Assembly (NCBI GenBank): GCA_041661765.1
Contig: JBAZTV010000003.1
Coordinates: forward strand, 143,914 to 207,913
DNA length: 64,000 nucleotides
Direction of reading: 5' to 3'
Source: Candidatus Shapirobacteria bacterium
Lineage (GTDB): Bacteria; Patescibacteriota; Microgenomatia; UBA12405
Shown here: positions 4,391 through 56,632 of the stretch, piece after piece
Position numbering within the stretch: the stretch's first letter is position 1
How the letters are laid out: each line of letters begins with the position of its first letter
Made by a program: the position numbers and the translations under genes
Notes under the pieces: model-generated
Told to the model about the DNA's origin: nothing
Seen by the model: the letters and a program-made list of their open reading frames with translations, nothing else
The model's database searches: none

Positions 4391-5074
4391 ATGACATTTC
4401 TAAATATTTTTTATTTTTTTGTTCTCTACTCTTTTTTAGGTTGGATAGCTGAAACTACATTTGTTTCTATCAATCGTAAACAATTTGTTAATATGGGCTT
4501 TTTAGATGGACCTTTCAGTCCTATCTATGGAAGCGGAGCATTAGCCGTTATTTTATTCATCTTTCCTTTCCATCATAATTTTTTTATTTTTTTTATTATG
4601 TCCACAGTCATCGCTTCGATTATAGAATATATCACCAGTCTTTTTTTTGAAAAAGGTTTTAATATCGTTTGGTGGGATTATTCAGACAAACCATTTAATC
4701 TCAATGGTCGAATCTGTCTCCAATATTCTTTTTACTGGGGAATTTTATCAGCTCTAGTTTTAACCTTCGTCCACCCCCACATAGTCCCTTTCGTTAATCT
4801 TCTTTCCAACCATATTGGTTTAACTGGTGTTATTGTTTTTATGATTTATTTCATTATCGATGCCACCGACACTTTTAATGATCTTGTTCAATTTAAACAA
4901 ATTATTTCTCAAAAAATCAGCCAAAGTATCAAATTAAATAAAAAAATCACTCGTCTCATTAATTCTTTTCCTGACTTTAAATCCAAAATTAATAATGATT
5001 TTATTGTTCAACTAAAATTAAAAATAAAATCAAATTACCATCGACCTGATAAAATTCAACCCAAAGCCGACTGA
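4391..5074 (+). CDS. Polytopic membrane protein of unknown function. Possibly a putative ABC-transporter type IV / CmpB-like family member (low confidence).
   Basis: Multiple hydrophobic helices. The N-terminal motif YSFLGWIAETTFVSI...GFLDGPFSPIYGSGAL is reminiscent of that family. Confidence 0.4.
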   Translation: MTFLNIFYFFVLYSFLGWIAETTFVSINRKQFVNMGFLDGPFSPIYGSGALAVILFIFPFHHNFFIFFIMSTVIASIIEYITSLFFEKGFNIVWWDYSDKPFNLNGRICLQYSFYWGILSALVLTFVHPHIVPFVNLLSNHIGLTGVIVFMIYFIIDATDTFNDLVQFKQIISQKISQSIKLNKKITRLINSFPDFKSKINNDFIVQLKLKIKSNYHRPDKIQPKAD

Positions 5075-5985
5075 ATTATTTTATCTAAAAGTTCAGAATA
5101 ATTTATTCCTGCTACTTTAGCCGCTTTTGGTAACAATGACTGTGCTGTCATTCCCGGAATAATATTAATTTCCAAAACATAAGCTTCGTCATTTTTAATA
5201 ATAAAATCTAACCTAGCCATTCCCTTACATTTTAATAATTTAAAAACCTTTTTTGATATTTCAAAAATTTTCTGGCTCAATTCGTCTGACACTCTTGCTG
5301 GCACAATTTCTTGACACAATTTCTCATTATATTTCGATTTATAATCAAAAAATTCATTTTTTGGACAAATCTCCACCAAAGGCAACGCTAATAATTCTCC
5401 ATTATCCTCAATTAAACTACAAGATACTTCTATTCCTTTTATGTATTCTTCAATTAAAATCTCTTGATCATACTTAAAGGCTAAATTTATGGCCTTCGTC
5501 AAATTTTCTTTCGATCTAACTATTGAAATTCCGATACTTGATCCTCCTAAAACCGGTTTAATCACCACTGGCCACCCTAATTTTTCCAAATCTTTTCCCC
5601 TCCTTTCGTCAAAGGAGGGGTTAGGGGTAGATTTCAAAAAAATTGCTTTAGGATTTTTTATCTCTTCTTTATTTACTAAAAATTTAAAAAACATTTTATT
5701 CATTCCTAAAATTGATGCCGCCGCTCCCGAACAAGTATATTTCTGCCCCATTGATTCCAATAAACTCTGAATCGTTCCATCTTCACCATATTTACCATGC
5801 AAAGCAATAAAAATTAAATCCGGTTTTATTTCATCTACCCAAGTGCAATCCCCATTAAAATCAACTGGAATTATTTCATATTTTTTCTTATCCAAATTCT
5901 TAACCACTTCATTTCCCGATATTAAAGACACTTCCCTCTCACTACTAATTCCACCCATTAACACCACCACTTTTAATTTTTTCAT
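5056..5985 (-). CDS. ddl: D-alanine--D-alanine ligase
   Basis: KVVVLMGGISSEREVSLISG...HGKYGEDGTIQSLLE...ARLDF...EINIIPGMT is the ATP-grasp Ddl pattern. Its 3' end overlaps the upstream ORF by a few codons. Confidence 0.9.
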   Translation of the reverse strand: MKKLKVVVLMGGISSEREVSLISGNEVVKNLDKKKYEIIPVDFNGDCTWVDEIKPDLIFIALHGKYGEDGTIQSLLESMGQKYTCSGAAASILGMNKMFFKFLVNKEEIKNPKAIFLKSTPNPSFDERRGKDLEKLGWPVVIKPVLGGSSIGISIVRSKENLTKAINLAFKYDQEILIEEYIKGIEVSCSLIEDNGELLALPLVEICPKNEFFDYKSKYNEKLCQEIVPARVSDELSQKIFEISKKVFKLLKCKGMARLDFIIKNDEAYVLEINIIPGMTAQSLLPKAAKVAGINYSELLDKIIQSALG

Positions 5986-6040: not shown

Positions 6041-7204
6041 TTGACTTGTAAACTAAACATGCTAAAATTAATCATGTCTGACTATCAAACCCTAAACGAA
6101 ATCGATATCGATTCATCTTATCTAATTAATAATTATAATTATTTCCAAAAAATTAATCCCAATTGTCACATTTGTCCTGTTTTAAAATCCAATGCTTATG
6201 GCCATGGACTACTTCAAGTCGCTCAAATTATTGATAAGCAATTAAAAAACACTCCATACATTATGGTCGACTCACTTTACGAAGCTTACGAACTCCACAA
6301 ACAAAATATAAAAACGCCAATTATGATAATGGGCTACACCGATCCTCAAAACTATCAAATTTGGAAAAAACTTCCTTTTACTTTTACTGTTTATGATATT
6401 GCCTCTCTCCAAGCCTTAGATAAATATCAAACTAACGCCAAAATTCATATTAAATTAGACACTGGTATGTGTCGCCTCGGTATTCAAAAAAAAGATGTTG
6501 CTGAATTTATTACTACTCTTAAAAAATATCCTCACCTTAAAATTGAAGGCATTTATTCTCATCTCTCTCAAGCCAATGATCCTAAAAAAATAACTTTCAC
6601 CAATCATCAAATAAAACTTTTTAAGGAAATGGTTTCTCTTTTTGAAAAAGCCGGTTTCCATTTTAAATACAAACACATTTCTGCCACTGCCGGCGCTTCT
6701 ATCATCCAAGATCCTTATTTTAATCTAATTCGTTTAGGATTAGGGTTTTATGGGTATTCCCCTTTTGGCACTCACACAAAAGAAGCCAGAACTCAAAAAT
6801 TATTTTTAAAACCGGCTCTAAATTTTACTTCCCGTTTAGCCCTTATCAAACAAATTGGAAGCGGCTCTCAAGTTAGTTACGGAGACAATTACACCGCCAA
6901 ACAAGACGAACTCATTGGTATTATCACTGCTGGCTATTACGAAGGTATCCCTTATGGTCTAAGCAATCGCGCCTCTTTTCTACTTCAAAACACCAAATGC
7001 TCTATTATTGGCAATATCAACATGAATATGACCATTATTAAAATTCCGAGAACTATAAATGCTAAAATTGGTGACAAAATTACTATTATTTCATCAAATA
7101 TTGAAGATTCCTGCTCTGCTTACAAATTATGCTCTACACTAAATATCCCCATTTATGTTCTTATTTGTTCACTACATTCATCAATTAGACGAAAAATTAT
7201 ATGA
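6041..7204 (+). CDS. alr: Alanine racemase
   Basis: CPVLKSNAYGHG contains the PLP-lysine motif (K in V.K.NAYGHG). Size is ~387 aa. Adjacent to murF and ddl. Confidence 0.85.
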   Translation: MTCKLNMLKLIMSDYQTLNEIDIDSSYLINNYNYFQKINPNCHICPVLKSNAYGHGLLQVAQIIDKQLKNTPYIMVDSLYEAYELHKQNIKTPIMIMGYTDPQNYQIWKKLPFTFTVYDIASLQALDKYQTNAKIHIKLDTGMCRLGIQKKDVAEFITTLKKYPHLKIEGIYSHLSQANDPKKITFTNHQIKLFKEMVSLFEKAGFHFKYKHISATAGASIIQDPYFNLIRLGLGFYGYSPFGTHTKEARTQKLFLKPALNFTSRLALIKQIGSGSQVSYGDNYTAKQDELIGIITAGYYEGIPYGLSNRASFLLQNTKCSIIGNINMNMTIIKIPRTINAKIGDKITIISSNIEDSCSAYKLCSTLNIPIYVLICSLHSSIRRKII

Positions 7205-8415
7205 AAAAAAATATTTCCAATCTCGTTTTAAATTATCTTAAATTTTTTGCCCGACTTCAACTTTCCAAAGTTAGATTTATCCAAAAATTAAAAAGAAAAC
7301 AGTTGGATATTGTCGGCATCACTGGCTCTGCTGGTAAAAGTTCTACTCTTTTTGCCTGTCAAACTATTCTTTCTTCTCACTTCAAAGTGAAAACAAACGA
7401 TGGCTATAATTCTGAATCTGGATTACCTTTAAGTATTATTGGTCTTAAAATCACTGATTATAATCTTCTTTCCTGGTTAAAAATAATTATTCTTTGCCCA
7501 ATTAAATTATTAATTAATTGGCAATCTTACGATATCTTAATTCTGGAAATGGGTGTTGACTCCCCCACTTGGCCCAAAAACATGGATTATCTTTTATCTA
7601 TAGTTCAACCCAACATCGCAATTTTTCTTAATGTCAGTTCTGTCCATATGATGAATTTCAAAAATCTTGATCAAATTGCCCAAGAAAAAGCAAAATTGGT
7701 CAATTCCGCCAAAACAGCCATCATTAATAACCAAGACAAATTAGTCAAAAAATACACTCAAAATAAAAATATTATTAATCTTGTTCCCACTAAAATTAAA
7801 TTTGACCAATTTTATCTTCCCGATATTTATCAAATCAGTTTTGGTGCCGCCCTCAGCCTAACCAGAATTTTTAACATCAACTACAACCAAGCTGTCAAAA
7901 ATCTTCAAACAAATTTTGTTCTGCCCCCATCCCGTTCTTCAATTTTAGACGGCATTAAAAATACAACTATTATCGACAGTTCTTACAATTCCTCCCCTAT
8001 TGCTTGTATTGAACTTTTAAAATTTTTAACCACTTTCAAAACCAAAAAAATTGCTGTTCTTGGCGATATGAGAGAACTCGGTAATTCTAGTAAGGAAGAA
8101 CATCAAAAAATTTACGATTTAGCCACTAAATCGGCTGATTTAATTATCAGTGTCGGACCAGAAACAAAAAAATATTTTATTAGTAGAGACGTTGCGCGCA
8201 ACGTCTCTACATTTAATTTTGATAATTGGTGGACAGCTGCCGAATTTTTAAAAGAACAAATTAAAGGTGATGAAACCATTTTAGTCAAAGGCTCTCAAAA
8301 CACCATTTTTCTTGAAGAATTAGTCAAATCAATTTTAAAAAATCCATCCGATTCTAAAAAACTCTGCCGCCAATCTCCCTATTGGCTAAAAGTCAAAGCC
8401 AAATTTAAGCTCTAA
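7201..8415 (+). CDS. murF: UDP-N-acetylmuramoyl-tripeptide--D-alanyl-D-alanine ligase (Mur ligase family, MurF-like)
   Basis: DIVGITGSAGKSST is the Mur ligase P-loop. DSSYNSSP and LGDMRELG are C-terminal-domain motifs. The start overlaps the alr stop. Confidence 0.8.
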   Translation: MKKNISNLVLNYLKFFARLQLSKVRFIQKLKRKQLDIVGITGSAGKSSTLFACQTILSSHFKVKTNDGYNSESGLPLSIIGLKITDYNLLSWLKIIILCPIKLLINWQSYDILILEMGVDSPTWPKNMDYLLSIVQPNIAIFLNVSSVHMMNFKNLDQIAQEKAKLVNSAKTAIINNQDKLVKKYTQNKNIINLVPTKIKFDQFYLPDIYQISFGAALSLTRIFNINYNQAVKNLQTNFVLPPSRSSILDGIKNTTIIDSSYNSSPIACIELLKFLTTFKTKKIAVLGDMRELGNSSKEEHQKIYDLATKSADLIISVGPETKKYFISRDVARNVSTFNFDNWWTAAEFLKEQIKGDETILVKGSQNTIFLEELVKSILKNPSDSKKLCRQSPYWLKVKAKFKL

Positions 8416-9001
8416 ATTCCTTATCCTTTTTCATCTCATGCTCAATCAAGTTTCTCAAAAACACCGACCTTGGTTGCATTCTTTTTTGAGCCACCCAATC
8501 TAAATAATTCAATATTTTTGGATTAACAAAAAAATTAAATCTCACATCAATCAAACTATCTGCCTTTTTTAAAGCTCCTTCTATTATTTGTTCTACATTT
8601 TCACCATCATATTCCGACATTATCAATTTTGGATCATCAATACCCTTAATAAATACCGGCATATGCTCCTTTTTATACAATGCAATTACTGGTTTATTCA
8701 TTTCCAAAGCTTTACTTATTAGATATCCCATCGACATACTATGTCCCGAAACTTCCATTATCACAATATCTGCCTTTTTAACTGAATCAAGCGATTGAAT
8801 ATAATTTTCCCTTTTTATTTTTTGCGGTACTCCGCGCATATCCTTCACCCCTGTTTTTATCCACTTCATCACCTTGTCACTAAGCATCTTTCCTTCAGCC
8901 GACAAACAAGCATACATTTTTGAATACAATTTTGGATCAATATCCACCAATCTAGCAGATGCTACAAAATATAATTTCATAAATTTATCCAAGTATATCA
9001 A
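8405..9001 (-). CDS. Hypothetical protein. Possibly nucleoside 2-deoxyribosyltransferase-like fold with a C-terminal extension.
   Basis: KLYFVASAR...ADIVIMEVSG...GYLISKALEMNKPVIAL weakly resembles NDT-like Rossmann proteins. Not diagnostic. Confidence 0.35.
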   Translation of the reverse strand: MIYLDKFMKLYFVASARLVDIDPKLYSKMYACLSAEGKMLSDKVMKWIKTGVKDMRGVPQKIKRENYIQSLDSVKKADIVIMEVSGHSMSMGYLISKALEMNKPVIALYKKEHMPVFIKGIDDPKLIMSEYDGENVEQIIEGALKKADSLIDVRFNFFVNPKILNYLDWVAQKRMQPRSVFLRNLIEHEMKKDKEFRA

Positions 9002-10097
9002 ATTTTTCTTTAAAAAATCTTACATCTTGTTCCATTGTTTTATCCCAATCTTGTTTAAAATTATGATCATTTTTCTCTTTAATATCCAAAATCACATTCT
9101 TTCCTAATTCTTTTAATTTAATTTGCAGTTCCTGTTGCCATTCAACTTTACACCACACATCCGCTGTTCCCTGATGAATCAAAATCGGCGCTCCAACCCA
9201 ATTATAAAAATTATCAATTGAATAAAGTTTACTGTCATATTCTTTTTCAAATTCATCAATCCTATTTTTTACAATTTTCCCCGATTCACTATTTTCATCC
9301 ATTGTATCCAAAACACTGTTCGGAAATGGATTGGTCATCGGCGCCCACAACACCGTCGGATAATTTTGTCCAGTAATTTCCAAAATTGAAATTGCAATCT
9401 GCCCACCATTACTATGTGCCCAAATTCCAATTTTAGTCGGATCCACAAAATCTAATTTTTTAACTGACTCAATTAAATCCAAAACACTCACCGGTTTTTC
9501 AAATCTTGCTTCTAAAATATCCTTCGACTCTCCATCAGATAAACCAAATCCCAAAAAATCCAAACTGACTGTTACAAAACCATTTCTGGCCAATTCATCC
9601 GCCGCCCGCCAACTTCCCGAACCAATATAATATCCATCACTATCAGCAAAACCTCTAATCATAATAATCACTGACGGTTTTTTACACGGTTTGTCCAACT
9701 GGCAGACCTGCCTGCCGGCAGGCAGGTTCATCATTCCACTTATTTTTTTTCCATTACTTTCAAAACTAATTGCCCTGCTTTCAAAATCAAAAATTTTTCC
9801 TTTCAAGTCACCTCTCTTTACTAATTCTTTTCTTGCTTCAACTACTGTCAAAACCTGACCTATTGTTTTAATCTCTGATGCTTTATTTATCCTTGTTTTT
9901 AAATTTTCAAAATTATATTGTGCCAAATAACCAGTGTTTTTTGGTTTTTCTTCTTGTAGAGACGCCCCACGGGGCGTCTCTACAGCTTCCGTTTTTAATT
10001 TCTGTTTTGTAAAATCTACCAAAAACCATCCATCCGCCCAACCCCAAAAAACTAAAACTATTACCACCCAAAAAATAATAATTAAACTTTTTTTCAT
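8985..10097 (-). CDS. Membrane-anchored alpha/beta-hydrolase-fold serine hydrolase
   Basis: N-terminal TM IIIFWVVIVLVFWGW. Nucleophile elbow GIWAHSNGGQIA (G-x-S-x-G). Contains two in-frame palindromic elements (9705-9729 and 9956-9983). Confidence 0.6.
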   Translation of the reverse strand: MKKSLIIIFWVVIVLVFWGWADGWFLVDFTKQKLKTEAVETPRGASLQEEKPKNTGYLAQYNFENLKTRINKASEIKTIGQVLTVVEARKELVKRGDLKGKIFDFESRAISFESNGKKISGMMNLPAGRQVCQLDKPCKKPSVIIMIRGFADSDGYYIGSGSWRAADELARNGFVTVSLDFLGFGLSDGESKDILEARFEKPVSVLDLIESVKKLDFVDPTKIGIWAHSNGGQIAISILEITGQNYPTVLWAPMTNPFPNSVLDTMDENSESGKIVKNRIDEFEKEYDSKLYSIDNFYNWVGAPILIHQGTADVWCKVEWQQELQIKLKELGKNVILDIKEKNDHNFKQDWDKTMEQDVRFFKEKFDILG

Positions 10098-13624: not shown

Positions 13625-13662
13625 AAACATTAAAATCCCTCTATTTTAGGGGGATTTTTTTT
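13625..13662 (+). terminator. Terminator-like hairpin after rplL
   Basis: aaatccctctattttagggggattttttttacc. Confidence 0.5.
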
Positions 13663-14127
13663 ACCATAATTCACCGGATTATCCTTAATATATTTTTTAT
13701 AAATCAAATATTCTTTTTCGTTTCGAATCCCTCTATCAAAAAATGATTTTTGCCATTCAAAACAAAATATTTTATTAATATTTTTTGAAATTGCTGATTT
13801 AAATGATCCAACAATAATTGGAATTATTTGATTTTGCCTTCTGTTTACTTGGGGACAGGCATGCCTGTCCCCTACAATAAATACAATTGCATGAATATGA
13901 TCTGGCATTATTACATAATCATCTAAAATAACATTTGGATAATGTTTTGGTATTTCATTCCATAATTCATTTGCCAAAATTCCAAAATCAGTCAAATAAA
14001 TTTGACCATTCTCAATGGTTCCAAAAAAATTTCTTCTATTTTTCATACAAATCGTTAAAAAATAAAAACCACCACTATCGTAATTAAAATTTAAACATCT
14101 ATTATTTTTTCTTTGACACGATCGCAT
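13630..14127 (-). mobile_element. IS200/IS605-family Y1 (HUH) tyrosine transposase, REP-associated type (RAYT-like), 165 aa. A palindromic repeat (13851-13872) is embedded in-frame.
   Basis: YFLTICMKNRRNFFG is the N-terminal beta-strand region. MPDHIHAIV is the HUH motif. The C-terminal catalytic-Tyr region is EKEYLIYKKYIKDNPV (YI..NP). Flanked upstream by two further copies of the same palindrome. Confidence 0.8.
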
Positions 14128-14150: not shown

Positions 14151-14316
14151 TTGTAGGGTACAGGCATGCCTGTACCCTGTTATTCACAATTATTATTAAT
14201 ATAATATGTAATATTAAATACATGATAATTAAATTGCAATAAAACATATAAAAAATCCCTCAATATTTTATACAAATGTGTGTAAAACAAAGTACAGGCA
14301 TGCCTGTCCCCTACAA
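14151..14316. repeat. Two inverted or nested copies of the 32-nt perfect palindrome TTGTAGGGGACAGGCATGCCTGTCCCCTACAA (family 2), separated by an AT-rich spacer, upstream of the RAYT gene
   Basis: ttgtagggtacaggcatgcctgtaccctgtt at 14151-14181. agtacaggcatgcctgtcccctacaac at 14290-14316. Further copies lie inside the RAYT ORF (13846-13877) and at 23721-23750. Confidence 0.8.
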
Positions 14317-23714: not shown

Positions 23715-23885
23715 TCGTGCCTGTAGGGGACAGGCATGCCTGTCCCCTCCCTTAATACAAAACCTCTCTGTCTCCCCGCGACCGCGGGGAGACATCTCCC
23801 CTTAACAAGGGGAGAAGTCAAATTAAAATTAAAGATTTCCGCCCTCTTTGAGGGAGGATGTCCGCAGGACAGGAGGGATTTGAGT
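23715..23885. repeat. Cluster of at least four different hairpin elements (family 2 palindrome, gggga-gacatctccccttaacaaggggag, and others) between ruvC and murB
   Basis: ctgtaggggacaggcatgcctgtcccctcc. ctccccgcgaccgcggggagacatctccccttaacaaggggagaagtc. gccctctttgagggaggatgtccgcaggacaggaggg. Confidence 0.75.
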
Positions 23886-23897
23886 TATAATTAGGCT

Positions 23898-24773
23898 ATG
23901 GATATAGAAAAAGTCTATTCAGATCTTAAAACCAAATTCCCCAATCTGGAGATTTATAAAAATCATCCCCTTGCTCCCTACACCACCGTAAAAATCGGCG
24001 GCCCCGCCGATATCTTTATTCAAACCCAATCTTCCGAAGAATTTCTAAAATTATTAAAATATTTAAATAATTCTCCCCTGTTAAGGGGAGATATGGCAAA
24101 GCCGAGAGAGGTTTTGACTCCCATTACCATTCTCGGTAACGGCTCCAACATTTTAATTTCCGACTCCGGCCTTCGCGGCATCATTATTAAAAACGATTCT
24201 GAAGAAATCGAAATTTTACCTGACAATAAAATCAAAGTTTCCTCTGGTACCCAACTTTCTTCTTTAATCACTTACAGCCTTGATCATAACCTTTTAGGCT
24301 TAGAAGAATTTGCTTACATTCCTTCAACTGTTGGTGGTGCCATCGCCGGCAACATCCATGGAAATAAAAAAAATAATTTTTCTAAATTTGTTTTTTCTGT
24401 CGAAAAATACGAGGATTTTATAATTTCTGCTTTTATAAAACTAACTCCCGGCGATTCCACTCAAGCTAAAATTGAAGTTCAAGAAATTATCCAAAAAAAA
24501 TCTCAAATTCAATCCATGCTTTCTCTCGGTTCAGTTTTTAAGAATTCACCAGGCAAAGATCCAGCTGGAATGATTATTGATCAACAGTTAAATCTTAAAG
24601 GTTATTCCATTGGTGGTGCTCAAATTAGCCCAACCCATGGCAATTTTATTATAAACACTGGTTCCGCCACCGCCAAAGATTATTTGGCCCTCATCAATCT
24701 AATTCAATCTCAAATGCAAACTAAATTTGGTTTTCAGTTTGAGCTTGAGATTAAACTCCTTGGAGAATTTTAA
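23898..24773 (+). CDS. murB: UDP-N-acetylenolpyruvoylglucosamine reductase
   Basis: APYTTVKIGGPADIFI is the FAD-binding N-terminus. ILGNGSNIL is present. C-terminal ...KNSPG...GGAQIS. An in-frame hairpin element sits at 24073-24092. Confidence 0.85.
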   Translation: MDIEKVYSDLKTKFPNLEIYKNHPLAPYTTVKIGGPADIFIQTQSSEEFLKLLKYLNNSPLLRGDMAKPREVLTPITILGNGSNILISDSGLRGIIIKNDSEEIEILPDNKIKVSSGTQLSSLITYSLDHNLLGLEEFAYIPSTVGGAIAGNIHGNKKNNFSKFVFSVEKYEDFIISAFIKLTPGDSTQAKIEVQEIIQKKSQIQSMLSLGSVFKNSPGKDPAGMIIDQQLNLKGYSIGGAQISPTHGNFIINTGSATAKDYLALINLIQSQMQTKFGFQFELEIKLLGEF

Positions 24774-32662: not shown

Positions 32663-35131
32663 TTAATCTTTTATAACAAAATTAATCATTTTACCCTCAA
32701 TATATATCTCTTTAACTATCACTTTACCATTAATCCATTTTTTAATCTTCTCCTGTCCTTTTGCTCTTTCAACAATTTCGTCTTTATCATTCTGCTTTGC
32801 AAAATTAATTTCTAGCTGATCTCTAACTTTACCATTAATAGCTATCGCCACTATTATTTTATCTTCAATTAAATATTGAGAGTCAGCCTTGGGCCACTCA
32901 GCAATATGAACTGATGCGTATTCGTGTAGATACGCACGATCGTGCGTCTCTACCATAAAATATAATTCTTCGGCCGTATACGGCGCAAATGGCGCCAATA
33001 ACTTAATTAAAGTTTTTATATCTTCATCTACCATCGACAATCTAAGATCTGTCAATTTATTTAGCGCTTCCATCATCTGAGCAATAGCAGTATTGTACTT
33101 GAATTGCTCATTCATATCGGTAATGTTTTTAATTGTTTTATTTAATATCACTTTAACTTCTCTATTTTTAGCAGTCTCACTACCAACTTGATTAATTTGT
33201 AGTTTGATAAACTGCTCAAATCTATCCAAAAATCTTTTTACCCCCATTAAAGTGTTTTCATTCCAAGCCATAGTCGAATCAAATGGACCCATAAACATCA
33301 TATACATTCTCACCACATCAACCCCGTATTTATCAGCTACTACTTCCGGCACAATTACATTACCTTTAGATTTACTCATTCTTTGATTATCTGGACCCAA
33401 AATAACTCCATGTGACAATCTTTTATAATAAGGCTCTGGCTGTTCTTTTGGTACTACTCCCAAATCCCATAAAAATTTATAAATAAACCGTGAATACAAT
33501 AAGTGTAGAACGTTATGTTCATCTCCTCCAACATAAACATCAACCGGACACCAATACTTCATCAATTCTTGACTAGCTAGAACTGTATCATTATCTGGAT
33601 CAATATATCTCAAAAAGTACCAATCACTACCTGCCCAATTCGGCATGGTGTCTGTTTCCCTTTCTGCCTTTCCACCACACTTTGGACATTTAGTTTTTAC
33701 AAAACTTTCAATTTTTGACAACGGACTTTTACCATCATCGGTCGGCTCATATACTTCCACTTCTGGCAGCACAATTGGCAGATCACTTTCAGCAACCGGC
33801 ACCCAACCGCATTTTGGACAATTGATCATTGGAATTGGTTCGCCCCAATAATGCTGTCTTGAAAATATCCAATCTCTTAAATGATACGACGCCGTCCTTT
33901 CCCCAATGCCTTTTTCTGATAACCACTTAATCACTTTTTTAATTGCCTCTTCTTTGTTTAAACCATTTAAAAAATCTGAATTTATTACTTTATTACTTTT
34001 TTCGTCATAGACTTTAATCATTTCTAAACCAAATTTCTTAGCAAATTCTTCATCTCTTTCATCGTGGGCTGGCACTGACATAATTGCTCCAGTTCCATAA
34101 CTAGCCAAAACAAAATCCGAAATCCAAATTGGGATTTCTTTATTATTAACCGGATTAATCGCATATAATCCTGAGAACACTCCCGTTTTATCTTTGGAAA
34201 GTTCCGTTCTTTCTAGGTCAGATTTTTTCTTCGATTGTTTAATATATGTCTCGATATTTTTTTGTAGAGACGCATCATGATGCGTCTCTAACAATTGCGA
34301 AACAAGTTGATGTTCTGGTGCTATCACCATAAATGTGGCTCCAAAAAGTGTATCTGGTCTGGTTGTAAACACCTCAAGATAATCTGTAGAGACGTAGCGC
34401 GCTACGTCTCTACTACTTGACGAACTTTTAACTTTAAACTTTATTTTTGCCCCTTCTGATTTTCCAATCCAATTAATCTGCGCCTGTTTTACTTTTTCAA
34501 TAAAATTAGTTTCTTCTAATCCTTCAATTAATTTATCAGCATACTCTGTTATTTTCACCACCCATTGAGAAATATTCCTTCGACTCACCTCTGATCCACA
34601 TCTCTCACATTTCCCATCCACCACTTCCTCATTTGCCAAACCAATTTTGCAAGATGGACACCAATTAATCGGCATCTCTTTCTTATATGCCAACCCCTTA
34701 TTAAATAGTTGAATAAAAATCCACTGAGTCCATTTATAATAGTGTGGATCAGTAGTGTTGACTTCCCGACTCCAATCAAATGAAAAAGCTAAATCCTTCA
34801 TTTGTTTTCTGAACATATCAGTATTTTCTTTAGTTACATCCTGCGGTTTTCTTTTCATCTTAATTGCATAATTTTCTGTTGGTAATCCAAACGCATCCCA
34901 ACCCATCGGAAATAAAACATTCTCTCCCTGCATTCTTTTAAACCGAGCATAAACATCACCTCCAGTAAAGCTAAAAGCATGTCCCACATGAAGCCCACTA
35001 CCACTTGGATATGGAAATTCAACAAGAATATATTTTTTATTTTTTTTTGAATTATTATCTGCTTGATAAAGTCCAGGATGTTCTTCCCAAAATTTCCTCC
35101 ATTTATTTTCTATTTCCTTGAAATTTTCCAT
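32663..35131 (-). CDS. leuS: Leucyl-tRNA synthetase
   Basis: PYPSGSGLHVGHAFSFTGGDVYARFKRMQGENVLFPMGWDAFGLP contains the HIGH region. KMSKSKGN is present. 822 aa. Carries three in-frame family-1 palindromes (32926-32953, 34264-34291, 34386-34413). Confidence 0.95.
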   Translation of the reverse strand: MENFKEIENKWRKFWEEHPGLYQADNNSKKNKKYILVEFPYPSGSGLHVGHAFSFTGGDVYARFKRMQGENVLFPMGWDAFGLPTENYAIKMKRKPQDVTKENTDMFRKQMKDLAFSFDWSREVNTTDPHYYKWTQWIFIQLFNKGLAYKKEMPINWCPSCKIGLANEEVVDGKCERCGSEVSRRNISQWVVKITEYADKLIEGLEETNFIEKVKQAQINWIGKSEGAKIKFKVKSSSSSRDVARYVSTDYLEVFTTRPDTLFGATFMVIAPEHQLVSQLLETHHDASLQKNIETYIKQSKKKSDLERTELSKDKTGVFSGLYAINPVNNKEIPIWISDFVLASYGTGAIMSVPAHDERDEEFAKKFGLEMIKVYDEKSNKVINSDFLNGLNKEEAIKKVIKWLSEKGIGERTASYHLRDWIFSRQHYWGEPIPMINCPKCGWVPVAESDLPIVLPEVEVYEPTDDGKSPLSKIESFVKTKCPKCGGKAERETDTMPNWAGSDWYFLRYIDPDNDTVLASQELMKYWCPVDVYVGGDEHNVLHLLYSRFIYKFLWDLGVVPKEQPEPYYKRLSHGVILGPDNQRMSKSKGNVIVPEVVADKYGVDVVRMYMMFMGPFDSTMAWNENTLMGVKRFLDRFEQFIKLQINQVGSETAKNREVKVILNKTIKNITDMNEQFKYNTAIAQMMEALNKLTDLRLSMVDEDIKTLIKLLAPFAPYTAEELYFMVETHDRAYLHEYASVHIAEWPKADSQYLIEDKIIVAIAINGKVRDQLEINFAKQNDKDEIVERAKGQEKIKKWINGKVIVKEIYIEGKMINFVIKD

Positions 35132-35183: not shown

Positions 35184-36182
35184 ATGTCTCTACCAACTAA
35201 AAAAATAATTATCACTTCTTCTGTCATTTTGGCCAGTTTTATTACAGGCATTATTATTTCACCTTATATTCTTACTTCAACTCCATCACTAAACAAAGAA
35301 ATTCGTAAAAATTTCAACTATCAATTTATAAACCCCCTATTAGAATGCGAAAATTCCATCATTAGTCAAGATTCAAACTTAACCTCATTAAAAAATTCTA
35401 TTCAATTTATTATTAACCAAGAAACTGATAATAATAAAATAACATTTGCCTCAATTTATTATCGTGATTTAAACAATGGTCCTTGGTTTAGCATCAACGC
35501 TGGCGAATATTTTTCCCCCGCCAGTCTTATTAAAGTTCCTGTTATGATTGCCTATTTTAAAGCTGCCGAAGATGACCCTTCAATTCTAGCCAAAAAAATT
35601 ACCAATAGTAAAACTTTTGATTATAGCCAGCAAAATATTACCCCAACTCAAGTATTAGAAATAGATAAAGAATATACCATTGAAGATTTAATTAACCGTA
35701 TGATTATTTATTCCGACAATGCTGCCTATGAACTACTTTTAAGTAATATTGATAATATAAAAATTTATAATGTATACCAAGATCTCGATGTTGATATTTC
35801 CAAGGCTCAAAATGATCCTAATGGTAATATTATTACTGTTAAGGACTATGCTTCTTTCTTTCGTATTTTATTCAATGCTTCTTATTTAAATCAAGATATG
35901 TCTGAAAAAGCTTTAGGTCTCTTAAGTAAAAGCCAATATTATAAAGGATTAGTCGCTGGTGTTCCTGAAAATATTACTATTGCTCATAAATTTGGTGAAC
36001 GTCAATTTTTGCCCAGTCGCGAAAAACAACTTCATGATTGTGGTATTATTTATCTTCCAGGAAAACCATATCTTCTTTGTGTTATGAGTCGCGCTAACGA
36101 TTTTAACCAAGCCGCTGGTTTTATTAAGCAAGTTTCAAAAGTTGTCTACGATGAAGTTTCTAAAAATGCAAATCCGCAGTAG
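35184..36182 (+). CDS. Membrane-anchored serine hydrolase, class A beta-lactamase / PBP-like fold
   Basis: N-terminal TM. S-x-x-K motif in PASLIKV. SDN motif YSDNAAYELL. K(T/S)G-like motif HKFGE. Confidence 0.55.
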   Translation: MSLPTKKIIITSSVILASFITGIIISPYILTSTPSLNKEIRKNFNYQFINPLLECENSIISQDSNLTSLKNSIQFIINQETDNNKITFASIYYRDLNNGPWFSINAGEYFSPASLIKVPVMIAYFKAAEDDPSILAKKITNSKTFDYSQQNITPTQVLEIDKEYTIEDLINRMIIYSDNAAYELLLSNIDNIKIYNVYQDLDVDISKAQNDPNGNIITVKDYASFFRILFNASYLNQDMSEKALGLLSKSQYYKGLVAGVPENITIAHKFGERQFLPSREKQLHDCGIIYLPGKPYLLCVMSRANDFNQAAGFIKQVSKVVYDEVSKNANPQ

Positions 36183-36939
36183 AAATTTCTCCACTCAAAT
36201 CAGTTCTACAAATTTCAATTCCTTTTTCCTTTAATCTGGTCAACACTTCTTTTGTTGGATGACCAAATTTATTTTTTACCCCCACACTAATCACTGCCAT
36301 ATTCGGTTTCAATATTTTTAATAATTCCTCACTTGTCCCATTTTTCGATCCATGGTGACTCACCCTTAAGACATCCACTTTCTCTTTTAATATTTGTTGC
36401 CAAACCAATCTATGTTCTGTTTCCAAATCAATATCCGCCGCCATAAAAATTTTAATTTCCCGCCCTTCCGGAGCCTCCGGCGAAGGAGGGCTCCAAAATC
36501 TTAAAATTCCCGCAATTGAATTTTGATTATTATCTTCATCACTTTTAGTCTTTTTTTTAGGATTGACCACCTCAAACTCCATCCAATTAGTTTTAACTAA
36601 ATCAAATTGACTCACTTTTTTTGAATCAATTATTTGTTCAATTTGATAAAATTTAGACACATCTATTAATCCTCCACTATGATCGTTGTCTCCGTGAGTT
36701 ATTATTACTACCTCAATTTTTTTATCCCAAAATGGTATATTTTTTTCCAAACAAGTTAACACTTTTTTATTATTTGGACCTGTATCAATCAACATTTGCC
36801 AATTTTTATAAGTCATTAAAGTCGCATCCCCTTGCCCCACATCACAAAATATTACATTCACTTTTTGCGACGGCAAAGTCAGCCAAAATAAAATTACTAA
36901 AACCATTAATGATAAAAATAAAATAATTCTAGTTTTCAT
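36160..36939 (-). CDS. MBL-fold metallo-hydrolase, ComEC C-terminal-domain-like (separate ORF)
   Basis: VVIITHGDNDHSGG is the HxHxDH-type metal motif. An in-frame hairpin element lies at 36455-36500 (ILRFWSPPSPEAPEGREIKIF). Adjacent to the ComEC membrane-domain ORF. Confidence 0.7.
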   Translation of the reverse strand: MKTRIILFLSLMVLVILFWLTLPSQKVNVIFCDVGQGDATLMTYKNWQMLIDTGPNNKKVLTCLEKNIPFWDKKIEVVIITHGDNDHSGGLIDVSKFYQIEQIIDSKKVSQFDLVKTNWMEFEVVNPKKKTKSDEDNNQNSIAGILRFWSPPSPEAPEGREIKIFMAADIDLETEHRLVWQQILKEKVDVLRVSHHGSKNGTSEELLKILKPNMAVISVGVKNKFGHPTKEVLTRLKEKGIEICRTDLSGEISTADLHF

Positions 36940-36949
36940 TTAAAACCCG

Positions 36950-37010
36950 CCCGCCCTCCTGCCTGCCGGCAGGCAAGGTCGGACATCTCCCCTTAACAAA
37001 GGGAGAAATC
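36950..37010. repeat. Composite hairpin element (GCCGGC-centred family 3 palindrome plus ctccccttaacaaagggag hairpin). An inverted copy lies at 45175-45230.
   Basis: cgccctcctgcctgccggcaggcaaggtcggacatctccccttaacaaagggag is nearly identical to the reverse complement of 45175-45227. Confidence 0.75.
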
Positions 37011-37038: not shown

Positions 37039-38037
37039 TTATGGCCTTGAACGTGGGCGACCACATTCACCAGACATAAAAAATTCGTGACGAGAATTTT
37101 TAAATAAAAAATAAATTAATAACAAATACCAACCAATCAACCAGATCCAGTTAAATTTTATTTCCACACTCGCCCAAGACAAACTCCCCAATCCCTCTAC
37201 TATTAATAGTATGTACTTCAACAAAGGAAAACTCAGCCACAAAATTATCTTTCCCAAAACCGGCACTATCAATCCCAACACACCTCCCAATATCCCCAAT
37301 ATTGTGATTATCTCTATCAAAAATAAAATGAAAAAATTAGTTATTGGCGCCACTAAACTCATTTTTCCAAATAGCATTACTAAAATTGGCAACAGCCATA
37401 AGCTCACCCAAAATGAATTCCATAAATCACTCCACCACTTTCTTTCTTTTTGAAAATTTAAAACCACCGCTCCAAACGCCACAAAACTCAAATAAAAACT
37501 GGCACTAAACAACACCCGATAATCAGCCAAAACCATAATTAAAATTATTAAAATTATGGCCCGCCCTAAATCAAATTTTCTTCCCAATAGTTGAGCCCAA
37601 TAAAATAAACTCATTAATAAAAAAGCTCTTACCGCTGGTATTTCAAATCCCACCCAATTCATATAAATCAAAATCATTCCAAACCCAAAAATAATCGCTT
37701 TCTTTCTACCCACCCAACTCGCCAATCTCTCCACTAGTCCTCGAAAAACTAAAATAATATTAGTTCCACTCACCACCATAATATGAATCACACCACTATC
37801 CCTAAAACTTGAAATCATATTTTTATCAAAATTATTCTGATCACCAAACACCATCCCCGCCATTAACGCCGCCTCTCTCGGCGGCAAATTTTTAAAAATC
37901 ACCCCAATCAAACTATCCTTATCTATAAACTTATAAATCAAAAAACATATCAAAAATATTAAAATCCAGATGACAAACCCACCCGGTCTTCGACCACCCT
38001 CCCTTGACAGGGAGGGCTTTTCACAACTGAATGTCAT
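37039..38037 (-). CDS. comEC: ComEC/Rec2 DNA-uptake channel, membrane (Competence) domain. The first ~25 codons read through a repeat, so the true start is probably internal.
   Basis: Polytopic membrane protein. ISSFRDSGVIHIMVVSGTNIILV matches the ComEC Competence-domain core. Lies downstream of comEA. Confidence 0.7.
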   Translation of the reverse strand: MTFSCEKPSLSREGGRRPGGFVIWILIFLICFLIYKFIDKDSLIGVIFKNLPPREAALMAGMVFGDQNNFDKNMISSFRDSGVIHIMVVSGTNIILVFRGLVERLASWVGRKKAIIFGFGMILIYMNWVGFEIPAVRAFLLMSLFYWAQLLGRKFDLGRAIILIILIMVLADYRVLFSASFYLSFVAFGAVVLNFQKERKWWSDLWNSFWVSLWLLPILVMLFGKMSLVAPITNFFILFLIEIITILGILGGVLGLIVPVLGKIILWLSFPLLKYILLIVEGLGSLSWASVEIKFNWIWLIGWYLLLIYFLFKNSRHEFFMSGECGRPRSRP

Positions 38038-40936: not shown

Positions 40937-41051
40937 AACCCACCCTGCTAAAAGACTATTCCTTTTTTTTCAAAATCCACCCCTACCCCTCCTTTGACTT
41001 AAAGGAGGGGTTTATTATTTATAATGTAATTTAAATTACTTATAATAAATA

Positions 41052-41462
41052 ATGAGACATATTAGTCCTATTGAGGCAATGACAAAAAGAGGTAATTTTA
41101 AATATCTGAAAGAGTTAAGATTACTTGCTAGACAAAACAGAAAAAACCCAACAAAATCGGAATTGTTAATTTGGAATATTATTTTAAAAAATAAACAAAC
41201 GGGTTATTTATTTTTAAGACAAAAGCCAATTGGAAGATTTATTTTAGATTTTTATTGTTCCAAATTATTATTAGCTATTGAAATAGATGGTGATTCACAT
41301 GATAAAAAACAATTTTTAGATAAAAGCAGAGATTTATATTTAGAGCAAAGAAAAATTAAAACAATCAGATTTAAAAATGAGGAAGCGTTGAATAATATTA
41401 AAGAAGTTAAACAAGATTTATCTGAAATAATTTCCAACAGAAAACAAGAATTAAAGTTTTAA
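41052..41462 (+). CDS. DUF559 (Vsr-like / PD-(D/E)xK-type) endonuclease-domain protein
   Basis: KSELLIWNIILKNKQTGYLFLRQKPIGRFILDFYCSKLLLAIEIDGDSH...DKSRDLYLEQRKIKTIRFKNEEA follows the DUF559 layout (R..P...E..LW...L......F.RQ..IG.YI.DF.C...L.IE.DG..H). Confidence 0.8.
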   Translation: MRHISPIEAMTKRGNFKYLKELRLLARQNRKNPTKSELLIWNIILKNKQTGYLFLRQKPIGRFILDFYCSKLLLAIEIDGDSHDKKQFLDKSRDLYLEQRKIKTIRFKNEEALNNIKEVKQDLSEIISNRKQELKF

Positions 41463-44006: not shown

Positions 44007-44138
44007 AACTTAAAATTAAAACCCACCCGCCCTGCGGGCACCCTCCCTTAAAAAAGGAGGGTTTTTGTTTATCCGTAGAGACGTTCTGCAGAACGTCTCT
44101 ACATAAAAAACATTATCCTGGGCACCCCGCATTGCGGG

Positions 44139-45116: not shown

Positions 45117-45335
45117 AATTAATTAAACCCTAACCCTACCCTTTCCCTTGACAGGGCAAGGGTTAAAAAAAATGCTCCCTTGTCAAGGGGAGATGTCCGA
45201 CCTTGCCTGCCGGCAGGCAGGAGGGCTGAGGGGTTTTAAATAAAGAGAGAAGGTGGGTTTTAATTTCTTTTTATAATAAATATTACAATTACTTGATATA
45301 TTTTATTAATATTATTCTCATTTATACTTTAAATT

Positions 45336-45725: not shown

Positions 45726-45939
45726 ATCCCTTTTTATTTTAAAACCCTCCGTGACCAAAACCCCTCTGTTCCCCGCGTCAGCGGGGAACAACAATTCTTT
45801 TTTATTCAAAACCTCTCAGTCTCGCTTCGCTCGCCAGCTCCCCTTAACAAAGGGAGCAGCCTAAAAAATAAAGACTTTCTCCCTTGATAAGGGAGAATCC
45901 CGGTTTATCCGGAAGAGGGATTTGTTGTATACTTAATTA

Positions 45940-46654: not shown

Positions 46655-46814
46655 ATGAATCGCCCCTACATGTTATCCTTTTTATATATAATGCCTCGTA
46701 AAAAACCCTTTCAAAATCCCTCTAAATCTCCCTTTGACTTAAAGGGAGACTTTAAAAACAAAATTTTATTATCCCCTCCTTTAAGTCAAAGGAGGGGTAG
46801 GGGTGGATTTTGAC
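46655..46814 (+). promoter_or_regulatory. Conserved ~155-bp upstream cassette of the giant-protein genes. Contains a putative -10 (tatatataat) and two hairpins. Copies at 56474-56632 (near-identical) and 51820-51925 (partial).
   Basis: ...catgttatcctttttatatataatgcctcgtaaaaaaccctttcaaaatccctctaaatctccctttgacttaaagggagactttaaaaacaaaattttattatcccctcctttaagtcaaaggaggggtaggggtggattttgacATG. Confidence 0.6.
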
Positions 46815-49800
46815 ATGAAATCAAAAAAATTAGATATTAATAATTGGTCATATAAATCCTTATTAATAATTTTATTTTTTCTATTAATTGGTGTTGTTGT
46901 TTTATGGAAATTTGTTTTACCAAATCATAAAGTAGAGGCTAGTTGGTGGAATGATGGTTGGAATTATAGAAAAGCGGTTAGTATTAGTAATACATCAGGA
47001 TCTGATTTAACTGATTTTCAAGTTTCTTTATCTATAGGTACCAGTGCTTTAATTGCTTCCGGTAAAATGCAAAGTGATTGTGATGATATTAGAGTTACAG
47101 ATATTAATGGTAATTTGTTGCCGTATTGGATAGAAGAAAACAATCCTGGTTGTAATCAATTAACCGATACCAAAATTTGGATAAAGGCTAATTCCCTCCC
47201 CGTTTCCGATGCTACTATCTATATTTATTATGGCAACACTTCCGCTCCCTCATCTCAAAGTGGTACTAATACTTTTGAGTTTTTTGATGATTTTAATGAC
47301 GCCAGTAAAACAAACACCAACTGGACCGCAACCGGAACCGGATATACCATTACTGGCGGCAATCTTTACCATTCTACTACATTAGAACCAACCAATAATT
47401 TTACCTCTTATACTATTAATAATAGTTCTGGATTTACTAACGGAATAATTGAATCAAGAATGAAACCAGCTAGTTGTGGAAATTCTTACGGTAAAAGTAT
47501 TATCGCCAGATATACTGATGACAATAATCAATACATAGCTGGATTAGAAGCTTGGACTGGTGGTTACACTCACATCGGTAGAAGAGTAAGCAGTACCTGG
47601 ACAAACATCGATCAAGATATATTAGCCTGCAGTACCAGTACTTGGTATCAATTAAAATGGACTCTCAACGGATCTAATCAGTACTTAACAATTAATGGAG
47701 TTGCTTCCAGTGGTGTTGACACTAATCTTTCTTCTGGAAAAGTTGGCGTTTCTGTTGATAACCGAGAAACAGCAACAGGTGCTTATTGGGATTATATTTT
47801 TACTCATAAATACTCATCAGTTGAACCCACCGCCTCTCTCCAATCAGAAGAAGCCGGCGGCGGACCAATTGCTTATTGGAAATTTGACGAAGGCACCGGA
47901 AACAATGCTTACGATTCATCTAGTCAAAATAATACAGGATCAATGTTAAGTGCCCCTATTTGGAAAAATGAAAGTGAATGTGTTTCTGGAAAATGCTTAG
48001 CTTTTGATAATGTTGATGACGGCGTCAGTATTAATAAAAATTTTGTTGGTTTAACCGACTACACTATGTCAGCTTGGGTTAATATCAAAGGCACACACCA
48101 ACACTACACTGGCGCTATTATGTCTTCTGGTGATTGGAATACCCAATATTGGGTATTCGGTATTAGTCAAGCCAATGATGCCATAAACATGTGTGCCGGC
48201 AGTTGTTCTATAAATTATGCCTTTCAGTTAAATAAATGGACCCATGTAACTGTCACTAGAAGTGGTAGTCAATATACACTTTATATTAATGGAAAAAATA
48301 GTGGTACTTATTCTGGCAGTTCATCTGCTTTGGTCAGTAGTGCCACCAACACCACTATTGGTCGGGAAACTTATGGCGGTGGTTATTTTGCCTTTAATGG
48401 CTGGATCGACGAACCAAAAATTTATCCTTACGCCCGCACCGCCGACCAAATCAAACTCGATTATAATTCTCGCGGATCTTCCAAAGGCACTTCCGCTAAT
48501 TTAGGTGGCGCCGGAACTGATAACAATTTATCTAACGGTTTGGTTGGTTATTGGAAAATGGACGAAGGCACTATGGGAAGCGGAACCACTTTTACAGACT
48601 CATCAGGAAATGGAAATACCGGCACTGGCGTTAGTAGCGTTGCCGTATCAACAGGAGAATTTGGTAATGGTGTTGATATTCCAGGTCCTGGAGGCAGTGG
48701 TTTAGGATCAGTAATTAATGTTAATGATTCTGATTCTTTAGATATTGGTTATACCACACCAATGACAATTTCATTTTGGCTAAATGCCGATTCAACTGCC
48801 TGTGGTGCCATTATAAAAAAATCCGGTCTTTGGGAAATATATCGTTGTTCAGCTAATTTAACTATCCGTTTTGATGGTTATGATCAAGGTAGTTCATTTA
48901 ATTTAAATAACGGTCAATGGTATTTAGTTACAATGACACGTGATCCTTCTACTAACACCACAAAAGTCTATATAAACGGACAACAAACAGATAGTTGGAC
49001 ATATACTATTGGTACCCCAAATTATTCCGGAGGCATGGGAATAGGTGCTTACAATGGCGGATCTTATGCCATCGATGGCAAACTTGACGAAGTCCGCGTC
49101 TACAACCGCGCCCTTTCCCCTTCCGAAGTTTCTCAACTTTATGAATTCGCCCCCGGGCCAATCGGTTATTGGGATTTTAATGAAGCTTCTGGCACCGTCG
49201 CCAATGATAAAAGTGGAAATGGAAAAAATTTAACCACATACAATTCTCCAATTTGGAATCAAGGAAAAATTGGGTCTGCTTTAGATTTTAATGGTTCGAC
49301 TCAATATGCCAGAAGAACTAGTGAAACTAGTTTTCAAAGAGTAAATGGACAAGAAATATCCGTTTCTGTTTGGATATACCCCAAACGCTTAGGCGGACAA
49401 TATCAAGATATTGTCGCCAACAGATCTAGTTCTGGACTTAATTGGCTAATTTATCAACACACTACTGATGGATCAATACAATTCCATGGTTCTGCTCAAA
49501 ATAAATCTACCTATATTCCACCACTTAATCAATGGACTCATATCGAAACAACAATAGATGCAGTAGGAAATTATAAACTTTATGCTAATGGACAGATAGT
49601 TCAAAGTCTAACAGGATACACCTTTGGTACTAGCGGTATCACTGAATTAACTGTCGGCAATTTTAGTGCAAACGAATATTATTTAGGCAAAATAGACGAA
49701 GTCAAAATCTACAACTACGCCCGCACCCAAAAACAAATTATTGAAGATATGAACGCCAACCACCCCGCCGTCTCAGCCAATTCTGCCATCGCTTATTACA

Positions 49801-51809: not shown

Positions 51810-51978
51810 TTTTCCCCTCCTTGTCAAAATCCCTCTAAATCTCCCTTTGACTTAAAGGGAGACTTTAAAAAAAATTATTATCCCCTCCTTTAAGTCAAAG
51901 GAGGGGTAGGGGTGGATTTTGAAGAAAGGGAGGATACCGGTTTATCCGGAGGAAGGATTCAAATGTTAAACTAAATTA

Positions 51979-55908: not shown

Positions 55909-55948
55909 TTTATAAACTCACCCTACCCTCCTTTAAAATAGGGAACAA

Positions 55949-56395: not shown

Positions 56396-56632
56396 AAATA
56401 ATTATTAGGATTTAAAGCCTCCCTGTCAAGGGAGGTGGCGAGTGAAACGAGACGGAGGGTTTTGAATTAAAAATGAATCCCCTCCCCATGTTATCCTTTT
56501 TATATATAATGCCTCGTAAAAAACCCTTTCAAAATCCCTCTAAGTCTCCCTTTGACTTAAAGGGAGACTTTAAAAACAAAATTTTATTATCCCCTCCTTT
56601 AAGTCAAAGGAGGGGTAGGGGTGGATTTTGAC

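Follow-up and report, generated by a model that had tools for sequence, protein, structure and literature searches.

The window analyzed here is a 64-kb stretch of Candidatus Shapirobacteria DNA (contig JBAZTV010000003.1) in which four open reading frames (ORFs) carry short, GC-rich palindromic segments. Pfam assigns these ORFs to Ddl (N- and C-terminal domains), MurB, an alpha/beta hydrolase (Peptidase_S9/Hydrolase_4), and a metallo-β-lactamase (MBL) protein (Lactamase_B), in agreement with the identities proposed in an earlier sequence-only reading of the same DNA. That reading had placed a palindrome inside each of the four ORFs without loss of frame. All four were found in frame in uninterrupted ORFs, 0 to 4 nt from the positions it gave, and they encode the peptides it quoted. 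The Ddl and MurB proteins of the window are 100% identical to database entries from Candidatus Shapirobacteria, a Microgenomates lineage. We treat the segments below as candidate in-frame repeat elements and refer to their sequence types as families A to D.

5593..5635, minus strand: family A element in ddl, in frame in ORF 5056-5985 (minus strand), encoding KSTPNPSFDERRGK
24070..24116, plus strand: family B compound element in murB, in frame in ORF 23898-24773, encoding NSPLLRGDMAKPREVL
9706..9727, minus strand: family C palindrome in the alpha/beta hydrolase gene, in frame in ORF 8985-10097, encoding NLPAGRQV
36459..36492, minus strand: family D segment in the MBL protein gene, in frame in ORF 36160-36939 (ComEC C-terminal type), encoding SPPSPEAPEGRE

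The ddl element consists of a hairpin, CCCCTCCTTTCGTCAAAGGAGGGG, at 5597-5620 with a 10-bp stem, and a 5' box at 5621-5634 that reads AAATCTACCCCTAA on the minus strand; the conserved form of the box that precedes the hairpin is AAATCYACCCCT. In murB, the hairpin TCTCCCCTGTTAAGGGGAGA at 24072-24091 (8-bp stem) is joined to a small second hairpin and a GAGAGAGGTTTTG tail. The hydrolase segment, ACCTGCCTGCCGGCAGGCAGGT, is a perfect 22-nt palindrome with an 11-bp stem, and the MBL segment, CCCGCCCTTCCGGAGCCTCCGGCGAAGGAGGGC (∼36459-36492), is a GC-rich imperfect palindrome whose pairing requires bulges. Each segment was folded as single-stranded DNA and compared with 200 shuffles of its own composition. 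None of the shuffles was as stable as the ddl, murB, or hydrolase segment (z = −5.3, −5.4, and −3.5, respectively). The MBL segment, which had also been described as a perfect palindrome, is not one and folds no better than its shuffles (z = +0.08).

Close orthologs that lack the segment exist at all four sites, and their proteins are shorter by 6, ∼13, 7, and 5 amino acids for ddl, murB, the hydrolase, and the MBL protein, respectively (comparison sequences are cited by L numbers). Six ddl orthologs, 93 to 95% identical outside the insert, encode 303 residues versus 309 in the window and are missing exactly the insert segment; at the DNA level, a 43-nt segment stands in place of 25 nt, for a net gain of 18 nt or 6 amino acids. 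The murB insert, which is common to L058, adds a net 39 nt (∼13 amino acids) relative to L057. The hydrolase insert adds 21 nt (7 amino acids) relative to L002 and L059, and the MBL insert adds a net 15 nt (5 amino acids) relative to six orthologs, the shorter of which lack the whole hairpin loop. Structural models were used to locate the ddl and murB inserts, and both lie in loops with low predicted local distance difference test (pLDDT) scores. In the AlphaFold2 model of Ddl, the insert is the lowest-scoring block (pLDDT of 55), between strand 114-118 and helix 127-136; in the AlphaFold model of MurB, the loop that connects helix 46-58 to strand 76-79 has scores below 50 at residues 63-72.

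One explanation for these segments could be that palindromes arose by chance within conserved coding sequence. The window does contain one such case, which served as a control: ATCGGCGGCCCCGCCGAT at 23994-24011, a palindrome found in all orthologs, codes for IGGPAD, a conserved murB motif. Had the four segments been of this kind, their peptides would be conserved in orthologs whose DNA lacks the palindrome, and the opposite was observed at every site. All four lengthen variable loops and are unconserved, and for three of them extended homologs occur elsewhere in the window. The ortholog alignments rule out chance palindromes in conserved codons, and we consider a chance origin highly improbable.

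The murB loop is an insertion hotspot. Minimal orthologs (261 to 262 amino acids) are empty there, and MurB P0124 carries at the same spot a different palindrome, CRDAMHGVST, the translation of TGTAGAGACGCCATGCATGGCGTCTCTACA and of the GTAGAGACG type described below. Further murB lineages hold longer, unrelated inserts in this loop.

The window derives from a metagenome-assembled genome (MAG), and an assembly or sequencing artifact could in principle create such inserts. The insert-bearing ddl protein, however, has been recorded by NCBI, JGI, and ENA and on two contigs, the ddl insert recurs in independent metagenomes (L003 and L004), the murB insert recurs in L058, and the families are found in dozens of independent MAGs. 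We give this explanation practically no weight.

Evidence that the ddl segment belongs to a dispersed repeat came from family A copies elsewhere. The ddl element and the intergenic copies share the 5' box, so that homology reaches past the stems. The family can be written as AAATC(C/T)ACCCCT, followed after 2 to 5 nt by the hairpin CCCTCCTTT-GAC(N1-2)-AAAGGAGGG. The remaining copies in the window are as follows.

40975..41011, plus strand: intergenic family A copy, 5' box and hairpin followed by a T-rich tail, terminator-like
46773..46813, minus strand: family A copy, intergenic, located upstream of a giant ORF
51882-51922 and 56591-56631: family A copies identical to 46773-46813; all three lie in duplicated regions upstream of paralogous genes, one per gene

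Of the five copies of family A in the window, three thus result from duplication of a gene upstream region (repeats D3, D14, and D18) and are not separate insertions. The genes concerned are three paralogous giant ORFs (1,668, 1,309, and 1,720 amino acids) arranged in tandem at 46803-61783. They contain internal repeats in addition to the duplication upstream, and DUF559 endonuclease-like ORFs (41052-41462 and 55949-56395) and small Big_1-domain ORFs flank them.

A scan for the exact family A pattern across 185,579 species, one genome each, returned 36 stretches. About 32 of these lie in Shapirobacteria-type MAGs, some of them labelled Gammaproteobacteria, and have the box; the four matches from other phyla are without it and appear to be due to chance. 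Judged by this pattern, family A is restricted almost entirely to Shapirobacteria-type genomes. A phage origin was considered and rejected, as IMG/VR yielded no matches to family A. Other in-frame hosts in Shapirobacteria-type MAGs are genes for a thioredoxin-reductase-like protein, ribonucleotide reductase, a GT1 glycosyltransferase (two to three copies within one gene), and a RimK-like ATP-grasp protein. Among the copies in these MAGs, both orientations and several reading frames are represented. The same family A peptide, KSTPNPSFDERRG, lies just upstream of the ATP-grasp domain in Ddl (5597-5620) and in the RimK-like protein (L048, 4274-4295, from a Woesebacteria-labelled MAG).

This distribution bears on the proposal that the hairpins are selected cis-elements (terminators, mRNA stabilizers, attenuators, or sequences that sequester the Shine-Dalgarno [SD] site) and that the coding copies regulate from within the gene. 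Several features would suit such a role: an intrinsic-terminator pattern at intergenic positions 40985-41011, 45767-45790, and 45192-45175; family A arms, CCUCCUUU and AAGGAGG, that are anti-SD-like and SD-like; and palindromes that stay perfect across diverged lineages, with compensatory changes, in the transposase-like gene (L019 and L020) and the leucyl-tRNA synthetase (LeuRS) gene (L010) discussed below. A regulatory function in coding DNA is nevertheless hard to reconcile with the recurrence of the same element, together with its unpaired 5' box, in unrelated genes, both orientations, and several frames. Moreover, the nearest relatives keep the same genes intact without coding copies, the ddl copy of L003 has lost stem pairs, and none of the elements has an Rfam match. 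An Rfam gathering search of the window returned only two tRNAs and the L10 leader, which accounts for a hairpin at 12620, and no Rfam family covers the hairpin elements; a known RNA family is thereby ruled out as their identity. We regard selected cis-elements as an improbable account of the coding copies, and a secondary terminator role as plausible for some of the intergenic ones.

Family B and family C copies are organized as compound elements. The murB insert is homologous to the whole of an intergenic element at 23755-23816, which is composed of hairpin B, a variable second hairpin, and a GAGAGGTTTTG tail. Three clusters in the window illustrate this arrangement; one includes a palindrome of the class called repetitive extragenic palindromic (REP) sequences.

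23722..23816, no strand assigned: mosaic cluster upstream of murB, with a GTAG-headed family 1 REP at 23722-23750, the hairpin TGTCTCCCCGCGACCGCGGGGAGACA at 23769-23794, and a family B hairpin at 23795-23815
36940..37010, plus strand: compound family C plus B element, with the C hairpin at 36957-36978 and the B hairpin at 36985-37006, in the gap between two ComEC-derived ORFs
45175..45240, minus strand: second compound of families C and B, sharing 93% identity with 36940-37010 across 60 nt

The family 1 REP upstream of murB is kept in L057 and L058, and the remainder of the cluster is found only in the window. The hydrolase palindrome forms a module of both C plus B compounds, and the hydrolase 23-mer recurs identically between tRNA genes in another Shapirobacteria MAG, L028. 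On this sequence evidence, the families are modules that combine into mosaic elements rather than the separate units that had been supposed. Of the intergenic relatives that had been proposed, those at 40975-41011, 23795-23815, and 36957-36978 proved to be related; the stretch at 45175-45230, offered as a relative of the MBL insert, is instead a compound of hydrolase-type (C) and murB-type (B) modules. The MBL insert has no related copy elsewhere in the window, and a weak relative (86% over 29 nt) lies in frame in a short ORF of L046, from another MAG, where it encodes NPPSPTATEGQ.

ComEC itself is split in the window into a "Competence"-domain ORF (37039-38037) and the separate MBL ORF (36160-36939), with the compound hairpin element in the 100-nt gap. 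The corresponding gap in relatives holds different hairpins (L005, 44-67; L006, 59-78).

The window as a whole is rich in hairpins. It has a G+C content of ∼32% and an unusually strongly negative GC skew, and its intergenic regions hold hairpin mosaics at high density. Perfect GC-rich hairpins with stems of at least 7 bp number 27, versus 1.35 expected (maximum, 4) from first-order Markov randomizations of the window, an excess of ∼20-fold. The density of GC-rich hairpins was put at 5 per 10 kb. Within 64 kb, housekeeping genes carry at least nine hairpin inserts in frame: two each in the LeuRS and hydrolase genes and one each in the genes for Ddl, MurB, a Mur ligase, the MBL protein, and the transposase-like protein. 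With respect to base composition, GC skew ranges from −0.3 to −0.47 over minus-strand genes and is about −0.1 over plus-strand genes in window positions 1-42000, a pattern that points to a strong replication-strand bias added to a coding-strand bias. Skew is near 0 over the giant genes at 46 to 62 kb, where G+C is higher (∼0.38 to 0.40).

Besides families A to D, the window contains two families of GTAG-headed palindromes, GTAGGGGACAGGCATGCC... and GTAGAGACG..., and a gene resembling those for REP-associated tyrosine transposases (RAYTs).

13630..14127, minus strand: RAYT-like HUH/Y1 transposase, 165 amino acids, with the HUH motif HIH and a C-terminal Y..NP motif
14155-14178 and 14289-14312 (region 14152..14312): a pair of GTAG-headed palindromes of family 1, directly upstream of the RAYT-like gene
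8183..8210, plus strand: GTAGAGACG...CGTCTCTAC REP in the Mur ligase gene, in frame in ORF 7201-8415, encoding SRDVARNVST
9956-9983 (hydrolase) and 34264-34291 and 34386-34413 (both LeuRS): other in-frame GTAGAGACG...CGTCTCTAC copies
44075-44102, 61796 and 61842 (61796-61869), 62594-62621, and 63520-63547: intergenic GTAGAGACG...CGTCTCTAC copies

The RAYT-like protein matches Pfam Y1_Tnp weakly (E value, 1.6e-3), its best Protein Data Bank match is 4ER8, the E. coli TnpA_REP (E value, 5.5e-5), and it scores 56 bits against NCBIfam REP_Tyr_transpos (REP-associated tyrosine transposase; E value, 4e-15), under the 80-bit cutoff. Homologs are named RayT by JGI, and the HUH and Tyr motifs are conserved in the alignment. 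Within the gene itself, shortly behind the HUH motif, lies an in-frame family 1 GTAG-headed palindrome (13848-13875; VGDRHACP). The GTAGAGACG...CGTCTCTAC family is represented by nine window copies with covarying inner stems, and the other GTAG-headed family is GTAGGGGACAGGCATGCCTGTCCCCTAC. The Mur ligase copy adds 21 nt relative to L059 and L002.

Several further observations concern these palindromes. The RAYT-internal segment persists in homologs down to ∼50% identity and is missing from more distant RAYT homologs. It is a perfect 28- to 32-nt palindrome in L019 (10253-10280) and L020 (4049-4080), one of which shows the compensatory change GGGAAC...GTTCCC, and it corresponds to positions 206-227 in L059. 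At the same locus beside rplL, L059 (1-420) has a RAYT-like gene that is ∼21 nt shorter and was called as two short ORFs; this gene may be decaying, or the assembly may be in error. The LeuRS editing-domain insert (LETHHDASLQ, 34264-34291) recurs as an identical 26-nt perfect palindrome in L010 (3506-3531), whose MBL protein is only ∼70% identical to that of the window, which suggests either hairpin conservation or recent transfer. The GTAGAGACG...CGTCTCTAC pattern also occurs in at least 120 IMG/VR contigs (L061-L180; median G+C, 48%) and so is not specific to the candidate phyla radiation (CPR); it looks like a very widespread REP class.

Copies of the four families were counted in ∼0.5 Mb of clade DNA. 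The sample is biased, since matches to family A were the route by which many of its loci were retrieved.

Family A: 49 copies, 16 in long ORFs (about one third)
Family B: 33 copies, 6 in long ORFs
Family C: 4 copies, 1 in a long ORF
Family D: 2 copies, 2 in long ORFs

Families C and D are low copy in this sample; for the source genome itself, the analysis covered the 64 kb of the window.

Alleles with and without inserts coexist among relatives. The closest syntenic relatives, L059 and L002/L057, have none of the in-ORF inserts of window positions 1 to 24 kb and far fewer hairpins. The ddl insert is present with identical boundaries in L003, whose ddl nests among empty alleles of another clade and whose copy has stem pairs already lost. 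For the Mur ligase insert, the window and L060 have identical copies and L059 and L002 have none; the gene trees of ddl and the Mur ligase conflict. From their sequences, the inserts appear to behave as alleles moved between lineages by recombination, or else the same sites have been hit repeatedly.

These patterns raise the alternative that no transposition took place and that template switching or gene conversion between hairpins, followed by homologous recombination, created and spread the alleles. Such a process would fit the identical ddl insert with identical boundaries in two clades, each nested among empty alleles, the Mur ligase insert that the window shares with L060 and not with L059 or L002, the disagreement between the ddl and Mur ligase gene trees, and the replacement of neighboring bases, without a clean insertion, at every insert. 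Recombination between orthologs, however, cannot put the same 40-nt element into the genes for ribonucleotide reductase, the TrxB-like protein, the GT1 glycosyltransferase, the RimK-like protein, and ddl. The presence of the element in unrelated genes means that a copy-and-paste step is still required, and the recombination alternative concerns how the inserts spread rather than what they are. We consider this alternative unlikely.

We conclude that the four segments are probably REP-like or Rickettsia palindromic element (RPE)-like repeats inserted in frame, with a probability of roughly 0.72 for this reading as a whole, any link to a particular enzyme excluded. Several results weigh against it. 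The MBL segment folds no better than its shuffles, of which 105 of 200 were equally good, and is a weak case with few copies; family C shares the low copy number in the census. Inserts with the same boundaries occur in lineages nested among empty alleles, so that recombination could explain part of the spread without transposition. In the filled/empty comparisons, we saw no transposition event and no clean insertion junction: each insert is accompanied by replacement of ∼16 to 25 nt of local sequence, and because this holds at every site, boundaries, target sites, and target duplications cannot be defined. Families A to D have no GTAG or CGTC tag at the stem foot. Finally, hairpin density does not track RAYT presence among the few relatives sampled, L019 and L020 being gene positive and hairpin poor. 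Related to the junctions, no target duplication was recognizable between filled and empty sites, where relatives have only 80 to 91% DNA identity and the junctions are blurred; even the closest empty alleles compared, those of L059 (91% DNA identity in ddl), differ around each insert. The AAATCTA at the empty ddl site of L002 resembles the 5' box, but L059 and L060 have AAATATA there.

In light of these data, we propose that short (∼20- to 50-nt) GC-rich hairpin repeats of REP/RPE type have become dispersed across Candidatus Shapirobacteria genomes, which are AT rich. The copies are mostly intergenic, often stacked as mosaics, and some probably double as terminators. Coding copies would survive only where they preserve the frame and fall in tolerant surface loops or linkers, and the host proteins (Ddl, MurB, the hydrolase, the MBL protein, the Mur ligase, and LeuRS) would thereby gain 5 to 13 residues that are the translated element. 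As for copying, the model we prefer is that single-stranded DNA hairpins are mobilized at replication forks by a RAYT-type HUH tyrosine transposase.

Whether the RAYT-like enzyme of the window could act on families A to D is a separate matter. These families have no GTAG head, and the enzyme link is putative. The RAYT-like gene is flanked by, and contains, family 1 palindromes and none of families A to D, so that no cognate REPtron was found for the latter. In relatives L019 and L020, the RAYT gene sits in a tight syntenic slot with the internal palindrome only and no flanking repeats. That families A to D are moved in trans by this enzyme, or by one encoded elsewhere, is possible but doubtful. 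A broader proposal, that a hairpin system of the Shapirobacteria lineage of the CPR comprises a domesticated RAYT, with a cognate palindrome in its own frame, that mobilizes both GTAG REPs and untagged box-plus-hairpin families with some site preference and so carries RAYT-type transposition into coding DNA, is an unlikely one. If true, RAYT-driven movement of untagged families would explain identical inserts at identical codons in separate lineages, and the elements would be a continuing source of loop variation in essential cell wall and translation enzymes.

These elements matter beyond the window in several ways. CPR/Patescibacteria genomes are usually called small and streamlined, and the window is nonetheless rich in hairpin inserts. 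Peptides encoded by the elements (PSFDERRG, SRDVARNVST, and VGDRHACP) can generate false local similarity among unrelated proteins, as well as length variation in marker genes. Because filled and empty alleles coexist in close relatives, movement of untagged hairpins is testable with existing metagenomes. Our literature search, which was thin on subscription journals, found no description of REP-RAYT systems or of coding palindromes in the CPR; here, the hairpin families lead to a RAYT-like gene as a candidate for the enzyme, in a phylum for which no REP-RAYT description was found.

[quoted passage not shown] MITEs are 70 to 300 bp long, with 15- to 30-bp terminal inverted repeats and target-site duplications (PMC3733652). 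The elements described here resemble them in being nonautonomous, repeated, structured, and occasionally in frame within genes. They differ in measuring 20 to 50 nt (compounds reach ∼70 nt) and in consisting of a single hairpin plus box, with no terminal inverted repeats. Given the small size and the lack of visible terminal inverted repeats or target duplications, the REP-like half of the comparison fits better than the MITE half.

REPs, including REPINs, are indeed close in form (PMC3733652, PMC3479197, and PMC8266576). The shared features are a length of 20 to 40 nt, GC-rich imperfect palindromes, dispersal, mosaics like those of bacterial interspersed mosaic elements, and some likely terminators, and the window additionally contains both GTAG-headed palindromes and a RAYT-like gene. 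The ddl, murB, and hydrolase elements have the short stem-loop typical of REPs (stems of 8 to 11 bp), and the MBL copy does not. In contrast to REPs, families A to D have no GTAG/CGTC tag and do not flank a RAYT gene, family A has a 12-nt box 2 to 5 nt upstream of the stem, and a large share of the copies lies in ORFs (for family A, about one third in a biased sample). CGTC REPs also apparently lack a dedicated transposase (PMC3733652), and families A to D, to which none is assigned, are comparable in this respect. REPs that lie in frame within genes are on record for Opitutus terrae, Rickettsia conorii, and further species (PMC3733652).

A looser analogy is available in the families' base-compositional setting. 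The GC clusters of yeast mitochondrial DNA are likewise mobile palindromic repeats, short and GC rich against a very AT-rich background, and are occasionally located in coding sequence. They are organellar and eukaryotic, unrelated in sequence, and probably differ in mechanism, and the comparison is one of analogy only.

A parallel for coding inserts is provided by the RPEs of Rickettsia, in which in-frame palindromic elements within genes are established (Ogata and colleagues, as summarized in PMC3733652). As with RPEs, the repeats described here are palindromic, belong to several families, and occur in an AT-rich, reduced genome of a host-dependent bacterium; they lie in frame in intact, apparently functional housekeeping genes, and one protein can take more than one insert. 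Insertion in frame at tolerant positions, which characterizes RPEs, was found here by ortholog alignment and, for Ddl and MurB, by the low-pLDDT loops of the models. RPE-1 type elements are much longer than the 20- to 50-nt elements of the window, and the host here is a member of the CPR (Patescibacteria) and not an alphaproteobacterium. Since family A occurs almost only in Shapirobacteria-type MAGs, its membership in an RPE sequence family is implausible. The parallel to RPEs in a reduced-genome lineage unrelated to Rickettsia is one of convergence, and it suggests that elements of this kind can remain within genes where purifying selection is weak, as in host-dependent bacteria. The general phenomenon is known; what is new here is the host lineage, the untagged box-plus-hairpin architecture, the modular mosaics, and the density of inserts in essential genes.

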